From: Neodothiora populina
Taxonomy: Eukaryota
Direction of reading: 5' to 3'
Length of the DNA stretch: 64,000 nt
Assembly: GCF_041146345.1 (NCBI RefSeq)
Contig: NW_027191404.1
Span: 2,480,001 to 2,544,000, forward strand
This document shows positions 48,230 through 50,711 of this stretch, one piece after another; position 1 is the stretch's first letter; each line of letters opens with the position of its first letter. A program made the position numbers and the translations under genes. Below the pieces are notes generated by a model, which saw only the letters and a list, made by a program, of their open reading frames with translations, had not been told where the DNA came from and did no database searches.

Positions 48230-49257
48230 ATGGCATCGGCAGGTCGCGCTCTTGTGGTTCCTGCTCTGAAGCAGCATACTTCTACTATCATTGTCGCACA
48301 CGGTCTAGGAGACAGGTACGGACATATACCTTTGTCTTAAAAGCACTAGGGCTCAATGCTAACATTTGTACAGTGGCGCCGGATGGTAAGCTATACTACT
48401 ACAAGATCGCCTCAATATTTCTTTTGTATTGACTCATTCGCAAAAGGACATGGCTGGCAGAGAACTGGCGCCGCAGGGGCAAGTTCGAGGAGACCGCTTT
48501 CGTCTTTCCCAGCGCTGCTAGCATCCCAATCACTGTTGTACGTATAGGACAGATGGCTCGCTTTTCCAGCCATTCGCTAATATCTCTATAGAGCGGCGGC
48601 CACAATATGCCTGGCTGGTTCGACATAGTAAGACCACGGTCTATACCATCTGTTCGCGCCCTTTCACCTTTATGAAAAATGAATGTATGCTAATCGTTCC
48701 CTAATCATATAGAACTCTCTTGAGGAGATAGACTTCAAGGAGGATGAGACCGGTCTCCTACGAAGCCGCGAATACTTCCACTCGCTCATCGCAGCTGAGA
48801 TCGAGAAGGGTATCCCCTCAGAGAGGATTGTCATCGGAGGATTCTCCCAAGGTGGTGCCATGAGCTTGCTCTCCGGCACAACTTGTCCCACTCGTCTCGG
48901 TGGCATCTTCGGTCTTAGCTGCTTCCTGCCTCTGGAATACAAGCTGAAGGACCTGGTCCCCAAAGATAACCCCAACAAGGTACGTGTACTCGTCGAATCA
49001 CGAAAAAGTTGTAAACACACTCTAATTATATCATGCAGGATACCAAGATTTTCATGGGTCACGGCGACGCCGACCAAGTCATCAGGCTAGAATGGGGCCA
49101 AAGGTCTGCCAACAAGCTGACCGAGATGGGCTGGACCGTCGACCTCAAGACATACCACGGGCTCCCGCACTCGGCGGATCCGGAGGAGATCGACCATCTA
49201 GAATTATATCTCAAGGAGAGGATTCCTGATCTGGGCGATAAGGCATCAAAGGCTTGA
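48230..49257 (+). CDS. Acyl-protein thioesterase 1 / lysophospholipase (phospholipase/carboxylesterase family)
   Basis: Exons 48230-48315, 48374-48385, 48447-48537, 48592-48627, 48713-48979 and 49039-49257. Motifs HGLGDSGAGW, MPGWFDI, GFSQGG, HGDAD and GLPHS form the Ser-Asp-His triad. The stop is TGA in a TGACTAG context. Confidence 0.93.
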
Positions 49258-50711
49258 CTAGCTGGGCCTGCGCCTACTCGAGTCAATGTACTTGGAGTGG
49301 GATTGGCGTTCCTTTTGTTCGTCTTATCGTTAGCATTGATGTTCGGGTATAAACGCAAAACAAAGTCCGACCGCTAAATACCATAGAAAATAGCATAAAG
49401 TACCTCCGTATCTAATTGCTTTTATGACGTTCTACAATGTGCACAACCTCCGAAGCTCAATAGCATTCGTCACTGACACATGATGTTCGCAAACACTGCC
49501 CATCTTCTTACGTACATACATTACATTGCGACAAGACGTACCCCGACAATGTCTAGATCGTATACTATCTTGTGTAGTCGATAAACAAAAAGGTTGCTAA
49601 ATGGCAGATTGCAGGGCTCCGGGATCATGCATTACCTAGCAAGGTAGTGTACCACATCGCGACCGATCGCTTACTTGAGAAAAGCTTTACCAAATCTGCA
49701 TGAAACTCGAAATGAAGATAATCCCCCCTCGACACATGAGCTACCTGGAAACAACAGCCGCAAGGTCTCCTGCTTTGCCAATGATTACCCTAATTGTATA
49801 GCAAAGCTTGACCATAAGGCGCAATAGAGTCCAAGTGGGCGTCGTATATGAATTGAATCTACATGGCGCTTCGATTGGTTTCAGATTGCGAATTCGCAGC
49901 CAACAGCGGCGGGTCCCGCAGACGATGCATTAGAATTGTGAGTCTATTTGGTCTCCGCATTTCGCAAGGGCCGCCAGTGAATTGAACGAATTTCAGCAAA
50001 TGCAGCAGAACAAGCCACTGGAACCCCATCTCGTGATTCTGTTCGATCTAGAGCAGCGCCATCCAAAGCAGTATTGCGGGCTGAAGGCTCTCGCCTAATA
50101 CGCTCCTTCTCTATGTTTTTACCTCGGGAGGACCCATGCTTTTGTGCCTGTCGAATCCTTAAGGAAATTACCTCCCACTTGTTCGGCGGCGCAACGATCC
50201 AGAATGGTCGTCTTACTCGTGTACCATTACCCTTACTGCAATGTTTTATGAGCCGGATCCCGCATATTGCACGATCGCGATGTGGCCCTTGTAACCAGTG
50301 CGTGATTCGTTCGCACTGTGACTTTCGAACATGTCGCGTGTGATGCATGTACGTGCGTGAGTGGTGCGCTCGACCCTACCTCCTTCCTCTTTACTCTCAA
50401 TCCCCATCTTTTTTTTTTATGTCCATGTGCCCGCTTATTGTTTCTAGGTTGTGAGGCGGGTACCTTAATCTAGGTCTAGTAGTTTTTGGCTGGCTGGCCA
50501 TCCCTCAGGTTAGTAGCCGTGGCGCCCGAGAATGAAACCTTGCGATCTTAAGACAGAAAAAGGTAGGTGTGAAAATGGCAAGTCCAGACTGTGCTTTCTT
50601 TTCACTTTCTGTTTGTTGTTCCCGTCTGTGTTACCATTGCCTACTTCTTCCGTCTCCACCTTTTTTCATAATTCACATCCTCTGAGAAAAAACGGATATG
50701 CTATTGTTGTC

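Follow-up and report, generated by a model that had tools for sequence, protein, structure and literature searches.

Readthrough of a UGA stop codon is a described route by which fungi send a minor share of a cytosolic protein to a second location. Stiebler et al. 2014 (PMC4207609) identified UGA with a following CU as the core element of readthrough in both Ustilago and human cells, and according to the same report an A at the next position, and possibly a G after it, stimulate readthrough, while Trp, Arg, Cys, or Ser can be inserted at the stop (PMC4207609). In Ustilago maydis, UGA-CU(A) readthrough is described to expose cryptic peroxisomal targeting signals of type 1 (PTS1) in Pgk1, Art1, Rpe1, and others (Freitag et al. 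2012; PMC4207609; PMC9549241). Here we describe a stop codon of this kind at the end of a gene for an APT1-like acyl-protein thioesterase, located in a stretch of 64,000 nucleotides of Neodothiora populina (assembly GCF_041146345.1, contig NW_027191404.1, positions 2,480,001 to 2,544,000 of the forward strand), hereafter the window. The window holds the full UGA-CUA-G, and the orthologues keep the core UGA-CU. We consider it likely, from the comparison of related loci, that a conserved programmed UGA-CU readthrough yields a minor tail-anchored isoform of this otherwise soluble depalmitoylase.

With the fungal PTS1 cases the present gene would share the UGA-CU signal, a major cytosolic and a minor relocalised product, and a patchy distribution; unlike them, the extension encodes a helix of about 20 residues with a basic tail, suited to a membrane tether and not to matrix import by a tripeptide, and APT1 acts on lipids and lipidated proteins and not in central metabolism. 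The mammalian readthrough isoforms MDH1x and LDHBx (PMC4359377, PMC5133446, PMC4207609) resemble it in the UGA-CUA(G) context and in a conserved extension that changes localisation, whereas they are animal proteins and their cargo is a PTS1. Predicted transmembrane (TM) helices in readthrough extensions have been reported for eight cases in Drosophila (Dunn et al. 2013, PMC3840789) and eight in Arabidopsis (Sahoo et al. 2022, PMC9293766); as reported there, they are TMHMM predictions on footprint-defined extensions, mostly without deep conservation, and PhyloCSF was negative in 5 of the 8 fly cases. In those proteins, as here, readthrough could add a TM helix and shift the protein to a membrane. 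They differ in that no APT1 homologue is among them and in that they have ribosome footprints, while the deep conservation found here is known from sequence alone.

Animal APT1 and APT2 reach membranes through palmitoylation of an N-terminal Cys. The membrane association of ABHD17 is described to go through an N-terminal palmitoylated cluster (PMC4755737), and APT1 activity has been reported in mitochondria (PMC5780395). The enzyme family (APT1) and the task of bringing a soluble thioesterase to its membrane substrates are the same as in the gene studied here, but the means would be an encoded, readthrough-dependent C-terminal helix in place of a reversible N-terminal lipid. Classical tail-anchored proteins, such as Fis1 and Pex15/Pex26, are found in the mitochondrial outer membrane, the peroxisome, and the endoplasmic reticulum (ER), with the GET pathway as a route of insertion. 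A definition of this class is given in 10.1101/2022.07.20.500724. The predicted readthrough product resembles them in having a single C-terminal TM segment and a short basic end, with no signal peptide or second TM segment; unlike in them, the anchor lies behind an annotated stop, so only the readthrough fraction would carry it.

Our literature searches, with most subscription journals outside their coverage, returned no paper linking APT1, acyl-protein thioesterase, or lysophospholipase to readthrough (the sole co-mention was in a selenoprotein review) and none on a readthrough-made or conserved tail anchor in fungi. Thus, the UGA-CU signal and the logic of dual localisation are known, and what would be new is a TM anchor as the cargo address, carried by an enzyme that needs access to membranes.

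Identity of the Gene and Anatomy of the Extension

The spliced product of the six exons is identical to the 236-residue protein P0002, labelled as a hypothetical protein of Neodothiora populina in NCBI and as acyl-protein thioesterase 1 in UniRef; the open reading frame (ORF) that ends at the stop in question is the last exon. Residues 7-223 of P0002 matched the Pfam family Abhydrolase_2 (PF02230) with a score of 188.4 bits (cut-off 23), and among solved structures human APT1 (6qgq and 1fj2; E 4e-40) and APT2 (about 4e-40) came closest. P0002 lines up with human APT1 in the serine motif GFSQGG, in the HGD block, and in the H-S motif, all of them invariant or near-invariant among 36 aligned sequences. 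The Ser (in G-x-S-x-G), Asp, and His of P0002 are presumably the catalytic residues, by correspondence with those of human APT1. On these similarities the gene product is predicted to be a soluble APT1-type acyl-protein thioesterase or lysophospholipase.

Hydropathy was evaluated with a 19-residue Kyte-Doolittle window (KD19), and values of at least 1.59 were taken as TM-like. The highest KD19 of the 236-residue mature protein was 0.98, that is, there is no TM-like segment besides the extension, and by the same measure neither a signal peptide nor a second TM segment was found in it. The N-terminal Cys of the mammalian enzyme, said in the original prediction to be missing from this protein, is indeed absent: none of the 37 homologues P0002-P0038 (P0002 included) has a Cys within its first 12 residues.

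Beyond the TGA the frame is open for 39 sense codons up to a TAA at 49375-49377. The coordinates, the TGA-CTAG context, the 39-codon frame, and the peptide that had been predicted were all reproduced exactly, and the expected succession of linker, hydrophobic helix of about 23 residues, and basic tip was recovered as 8, 23, and 8 residues, with a best KD19 of 2.71 and 5 Lys/Arg in the tip (Table 1). A single TM segment close to the C-terminus, which defines a tail anchor, is therefore present as judged by hydropathy, with 8 residues from the helix to the end. Pfam families of TM segments matched the 39-residue extension no better than below threshold (E about 0.09), and no PTS1-like C-terminal tripeptide was seen by eye among the extensions viewed.

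Table 1: Features of the APT1-like gene and of the frame behind its stop codon (positions in the window).
Feature	Position	Strand	Remarks
APT1-like (Abhydrolase_2) gene, coding sequence (CDS), six exons	48230-49257	+	spliced translation = P0002
CDS exons	48230-48315, 48374-48385, 48447-48537, 48592-48627, 48713-48979, 49039-49257	+	stop included in the last exon
Putative leaky stop context TGA-CTAG	49255-49261	+	TGA itself 49255-49257
Extension, linker, 8 codons	49258-49281	+	first codon CTA (Leu); linkers of variable length here in orthologues
Extension, hydrophobic helix, 23 codons	49282-49350	+	uncharged run of 21 residues; best KD19 2.71
Extension, basic C-terminal tail, 8 codons	49351-49374	+	5 Lys/Arg and 1 Asp
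Second in-frame stop TAA	49375-49377	+	end of the predicted readthrough product
Further 3′ untranslated region (UTR) in RNA-like contig	49378-49410	+	lower bound for the 3′ end of the mRNA

Stop Context and Candidate Hidden Anchor in Orthologous Loci

Relatives of the gene were collected from metagenome contigs by a family-alignment scan; its 592 pattern hits contained 163 confirmed relatives, of which the 80 best were used. In each locus the C-terminal high-scoring segment pair was located and the frame was followed to its stop and then to the next one; L019 and L041 run off their contigs and were excluded, which left 78 evaluable loci. The stop was TGA-CT in 26 of the 78. Behind it the frame stays open for at least 32 codons and reaches a KD19 of 1.59 or more in 23 of these 26; among the 52 loci whose stop has another context, just two (L048 and L067) have such an extension. 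The association was strong by Fisher's exact test (p = 2e-14, or 1.6e-13 without the duplicates L003, equal to L002, and L025, equal to L024), where it must be considered that metagenome loci were assigned by similarity and are not phylogenetically independent, so that the number of loci does not equal the number of separate events in evolution. As for the two exceptions, L048 has TGA-CGA and a helix homologous to that of its clade, and L067 has a long GC-rich run of bacterial-like character. In the remaining loci without TGA-CT the in-frame extension was 2-18 codons long, except in one locus where it has 51 codons but lacks a helix.

The open downstream frame and the retained TM-like helix, proposed as signs of function in orthologues, were thus found together with the TGA-CT stop. 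The proposed conservation of TGACTA held in part: the TGA-CT core is kept, but no more than 6 of 23 distinct sequences have the complete CTA, and 3 (the window, L023, and L040) have CTAG. In the extension-bearing TGA-CT loci the codon behind TGA is CTA, CTG, CTT, or CTC and never TTA or TTG. This pattern fits selection on C at +4 and U at +5 and not on Leu as an amino acid.

The extensions of the 23 TGA-CT loci measure 32-53 codons and have a Lys/Arg-rich end. One build is common to all 23 distinct sequences, the window and L048 counted: a variable linker, an uncharged run of 15-27 residues, 2-6 Lys/Arg in up to 8 residues past the helix, and a C-terminus 5-22 residues past the run. The KD19 of the orthologue helices is 1.6-2.9, and some loci have dense basic clusters, with 5-6 Lys/Arg in 8 residues. 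For the frame control we used the window, 23 distinct TGA-CT loci, and L048, leaving out L003, L025, and L043. In frame 0 each of the 25 sequences had 32-53 open codons, while at least 32 open codons were present in frame +1 in 3 of 25 and in frame +2 in 8 of 25; at the level of six sequence groups this control gives a value of about 1e-4.

Two further observations were made in these loci. The residue before the putative leaky stop is Leu in most extension-bearing relatives, so that Leu usually stands on both sides of the stop, and in many annotated homologues the last two positions are taken by a conserved small residue and Leu. At L037:2299-2420 a TGA-CTT stop is followed by a helix and a basic tail in frame +1, which would represent either a recent frameshift, and hence decay, or an indel error of the contig.

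Constraint on the Extension as Protein

The extension peptides are homologous within the sequence groups A, B, and C. Their BLOSUM62 local scores were 63-135, against 20-25 for composition-preserving shuffles (z 8.6-23), and in all 17 pairs none of 500 shuffles matched the score. The peptide of the window gave z values of 7.7 with L002, 5.6 with L009, and 4.8 with L008.

In codon alignments the differences between extensions fall mainly on third positions: the fractions at positions 1/2/3 were 0.45/0.35/0.63 in group A (381 codon pairs), 0.38/0.30/0.59 in group B (262 codon pairs), and 0.39/0.17/0.39 in group C (41 codon pairs). The ratio of nonsynonymous to synonymous differences per site (pN/pS) was 0.38-0.89 in groups A-C, with most pairs at 0.4-0.7. 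Considering that pS was 0.47-0.88 in these groups and up to 0.96 outside them, the loci are not near-identical strains. Synonymous sites are near saturation, and therefore an unconstrained frame would not have survived. The expected dN/dS below 1 was found as far as pN/pS and the third-position bias go; the formal Nei-Gojobori dN/dS is undefined for many pairs, since pS above 0.74 gives no Jukes-Cantor value. A control made with the last 50 codons of the CDS was unusable in several loci, where it ran into introns (pN about 0.7). With the gap settings used, nucleotide identity over the last 90 nucleotides of the CDS, the extension, and the 120 nucleotides past the second stop was 0.72-0.78 for all pairs, the same as in shuffled sequences, and was therefore uninformative. 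Taking into account the peptide homology and the codon-position pattern, the extension is under coding-type constraint in groups A-C.

Taxonomic Breadth and Points against the Reading

The loci were classed by blastx against the named proteins of the homologue searches. L002, L008, and L009 are nearest to Elasticomyces and Baudoinia (Mycosphaerellales; 74-88% identity), L015, L016, L048, L049, and L051 to Pleosporales (66-83%), and L001 to a Dothideomycete (83%). The nearest relatives of L020-L023, L026, and L040 are Helotiales (Leotiomycetes); those of L031, L032, and L057 are Eurotiales (54-79% identity; Thermoascus 77%, Penicillium 79%), and L058 is distantly similar to Exophiala (62%). The extension-bearing loci therefore resemble three classes of Pezizomycotina, namely, Dothideomycetes, Eurotiomycetes, and Leotiomycetes. 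The C-termini of annotated Aspergillus and Penicillium proteins are identical to the residues in front of TGA in L032, L057, and L058, which suggests that Aspergillus and Penicillium may carry the extension as well.

Several points weigh against a functional readthrough anchor. We infer the translation of the extension from its evolution alone. Readthrough may be low in many lineages, since the stronger CTA occurs in no more than 6 of the 23 distinct sequences. The saturation of synonymous sites limits the dN/dS estimates as described above, just as the shared descent of the metagenome loci limits the locus counts. Most pairs of extensions from the Leotiomycetes-like and Eurotiomycetes-like groups are similar in composition alone, and in group E five of six pairs had z values from -1.0 to 0.9; these groups appear to keep the build and not the sequence, which is usual for membrane anchors but is weaker evidence. 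The window extension has a GC content at third codon positions (GC3) of 0.51, compared with 0.65 in the CDS. The sequencing run on which the evidence for the transcript depends, X2, carries the label "DNA?", and its RNA origin is deduced from intron-less contigs. Three TGA-CT loci do not have the in-frame anchor: L043, a distant relative with 12 codons, L037, and L027, which is a shortened, decayed homologue of L058.

The spread is also patchy. No such extension is present in the Lecanoromycetes-like L011-L014 (TAG; the class is taken from L012 alone), in L017 and L018 (TAA), in L028, L029, L035, and L068 (TAA), in L072 (TGA-GGG), or in the Exophiala-like L056 (TAA-CTT). L004, L006, and L010, close kin of L002, L008, and L009, have TGA-GCT and a helix in no frame; considering that they have neither, the leaky context and the extension would have been lost together. 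The anchor would then be an old feature that was lost repeatedly. Readthrough-PTS1 cases are described as similarly patchy among species (review PMC9549241).

These contigs, about 85% identical to Elasticomyces proteins, occur in two forms, L002, L008, and L009 with TGA-CTG and the extension, and L004, L006, and L010 with TGA-GCT and no helix. These two forms may be paralogues with and without the anchor; the protein library holds two distinct Elasticomyces proteins, P0160 and P0165.

Proposed Mechanism and Alternative Functions

From the conserved context and the build of the extension we infer the following course of events. A near-cognate tRNA would decode the UGA in a minority of translation events, and the ribosome would add 39 residues comprising the short linker, one hydrophobic helix, and the Lys/Arg-rich end. 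The resulting tail-anchored isoform would be inserted in and tethered to an organelle membrane, with the catalytic domain facing the cytosol and its substrates at that membrane. One gene would thus supply a major soluble and a minor membrane-bound enzyme; probably a small share of the enzyme is made membrane-bound.

In the sorting of tail-anchored proteins, a short and strongly basic end favours the mitochondrial outer membrane or the peroxisome, and a very hydrophobic helix favours the ER. Because the helices are quite hydrophobic (KD19 up to 2.9) yet the ends are very basic, we name the target only as an organelle membrane; the mitochondrial outer or the peroxisomal membrane would be candidates. 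A wider claim, which we favour by a narrow measure, is that this readthrough-dependent tail anchor is ancient, being no younger than the last ancestor shared by Dothideomycetes, Eurotiomycetes, and Leotiomycetes, and that it keeps a fixed small fraction of APT1 as an integral membrane protein of a specific organelle, which the basic end would place at the peroxisome or the mitochondrial outer membrane. It would be the first deeply conserved TM anchor, in place of a tripeptide for matrix import, supplied by readthrough and would imply a general, unannotated class of such anchors hidden after UGA-CU stops in fungi.

The serious rival is the mitigation of readthrough errors, in which the leaky stop is tolerated on other grounds, the hydrophobic tail encoded by the 3′ UTR is a degron, and the rare product is sent to BAG6/GET-linked quality control and the proteasome. 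BAG6 is reported to capture hydrophobic C-terminal tails translated from 3′ UTRs for degradation, and these tails are said to resemble defective tail anchors (bioRxiv 10.1101/2022.07.20.500724); a similar metazoan finding is described in PMC10364623. The extension is strongly hydrophobic, and the joint loss of extension and leaky stop is also predicted by the degron model. Nevertheless, one base change at +4 or in the stop itself would end the leak, and still TGA-CT is kept across three classes (L048 has TGA-CGA). The tails have the build of authentic tail anchors, that is, TM length (15-27 uncharged residues), then a basic cluster and an end within 5-22 residues, and their peptide homology and third-position bias exceed what a degron driven by composition needs. 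Moreover, the BAG6 pathway is demonstrated in animal cells and not in fungi. On this balance we regard mitigation as improbable.

It is also possible, though with little probability in our estimate, that the extension is functional without being a classical tail anchor and works as an amphipathic or hairpin membrane segment, as an oligomerisation helix, or through polybasic ribosome stalling that tunes mRNA stability. The membrane segment is predicted from hydropathy, and some loci have dense basic clusters (5-6 Lys/Arg in 8 residues). However, uncharged runs of 15-27 residues with a KD19 of 1.6-2.9 are of the TM type, they lie within 5-22 residues of the C-terminus, and the protein has no other hydrophobic segment, all of which agrees better with a tail anchor.

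Annotated Proteins and Independent Gene Calls

Word-based protein searches gave 37, 57, and 195 homologues of 80-279 residues (120 of the 195 were listed). The extension was covered by none of these 289 annotated or predicted homologues; the matches to the query ended at the stop codon, with a cover of at most 66%, 69%, and 75%, respectively. Considering that gene models end at the stop, homologues without the extension are expected under any hypothesis. A profile built from eleven readthrough translations was then compared with 1.84 billion representatives and gave 2581 matches at E of 1e-3 or lower; among the best 150 of them, three reach into the extension. P0209 aligned to the very end of a Tothia fuscella protein, past which it has W and L and then a helix with a basic tail. 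P0210/P0361 corresponds to the ORF of the 89-residue P0359 and P0363, likewise extended by W, L, helix, and basic tail. Evidently, some gene callers read TGA as Trp at the orthologous stop.

In P0213, the thioesterase C-terminus passes directly, with no intervening W, into a helix and basic tail. This protein may come from a lineage in which the stop has turned into a sense codon, giving a constitutive tail-anchored APT1.

Transcript, Splicing, and Selenocysteine

Three sequencing runs were available, X1 and X2 from the same sample, with X1 perhaps the origin of the window itself, and X3 from another study, all of them as contigs, in which rare splice variants are invisible. X2 was read as RNA-derived because four introns with GT..AG ends are missing from its contigs, which include the 12-nucleotide micro-exon 48374-48385 (4 codons), whose letters sit in the joint 48315->48446. 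One X2 contig joins 48728-48977 to 49037-49410 with zero letter differences and with the TGA unchanged, where 49410 is the end of the contig and not of the RNA. The TGA was seen in all three runs, and thus in two studies, X3 being identical to the window over 49138-49331. The whole extension and at least 33 nucleotides beyond it sit inside the mRNA, and there is no joint across the stop region.

Two objections raised with the original prediction can be answered from this contig. A poly(A) site before 49377 was not borne out, as the contig runs to 49410, and the reading stands in this respect. Alternative splicing as the route to the segment is opposed by the stop region, unspliced in the contig, and by the lack of a suitable donor: going upstream from the stop, the first GT is met at 49138, ahead of the catalytic His codon, so an intron that skips the stop would delete the catalytic His. 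In orthologues the TGA is followed by CTG, CTT, or CTC, so there is no conserved AG acceptor behind the stop. Splicing around the stop was accordingly rejected for the window.

A selenocysteine insertion sequence (SECIS) downstream of the stop was not found with Rfam in 48900-49900 at E up to 10. The only SECIS-type match was the bacterial-type SECIS_4 (14.7 bits, E 5.9), inside intron 5 and upstream of the stop. Selenocysteine at the UGA was rejected because no SECIS was present, the covered 3′ UTR past the TAA being 33 nucleotides; fungi are reported to be without selenocysteine machinery (PMC4207609).

That the extension is joined by alternative splicing or selenocysteine, or that the TGA is a sequencing error or a strain-specific nonsense mutation in an ancestrally tail-anchored protein, thus appears very improbable. 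P0213 leaves room for constitutive forms, and contigs drop rare splice variants; against these stand the TGA in three runs of two studies, including a spliced contig, and in all 23 extension-bearing loci, as well as the missing donor, acceptor, and SECIS.

Two differences from the window were noted in the contigs. The spliced X2 contig uses a donor at 48651/48652 (GT..AG, 61 nucleotides skipped) in place of the annotated 48627/48628, which adds 8 in-frame codons in a conserved region just past the G-W-F/Y-D-I motif. The annotated junction is the version that agrees with the homologues, and the form with 8 extra codons may represent a second isoform or the one that predominates in this sample. 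The X1 contig is one base short at 50409, outside the gene, probably a homopolymer or assembly difference.

Chance Level within the Window

The heptamer TGACTAG occurs 6 times in the window, with 6.16 expected, which is chance frequency. The other five sites end no long ORF, the open frames upstream of them being 7-46 codons, and the remark that no other stop checked has this context holds for the seven-letter string, to which our test was confined. In 50,000 nucleotide shuffles of the extensions (25 sequences), 12.4% stayed open and 0.57% were open with a KD19 of at least 1.59. Taken alone, the window is unusual but only weakly beyond chance and not conclusive, and therefore the decision was rested on the DNA of the relatives.

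An ordinary, functionless 3′ UTR that is U-rich and open in frame by chance would agree with the share of open shuffles, the chance frequency of TGACTAG, and the GC3 below that of the CDS, but it is the least credible explanation and is contradicted by the comparative data. These show the anchor in 23 of the 26 loci with TGA-CT and in 2 of the 52 without it, an open frame 0 in each of 25 sequences compared with 11 of 50 cases in frames +1 and +2, only 0.57% expected by shuffling, and a within-clade peptide homology of z 8.6-23.

An antisense ORF of 104 codons (49059-49373, minus strand) overlaps the last exon and the extension. An antisense gene was rejected: no reverse frame was consistently open among the orthologues, the best being stop-free in 12 of 23 sequences, and the ORF is for this reason regarded as a by-product of sense coding.

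Implications

None of the homologues from the word-based searches includes the extension, which would, if the reading is true, be a gap in annotation. The arrangement also suggests a genome-wide screen for TGA-CT stops behind which the frame stays open and encodes a helix and a basic end. As Aspergillus-like and Penicillium-like relatives appear to carry the extension, the idea is testable in standard model fungi. If the reading is true, the functional repertoire of eukaryotic readthrough would be widened, and fungi would hard-wire the split of a depalmitoylase between cytosol and membrane. It would also explain how a fungal APT1 without the animal-type N-terminal Cys reaches its membrane substrates, S-acylated proteins and lysophospholipids.

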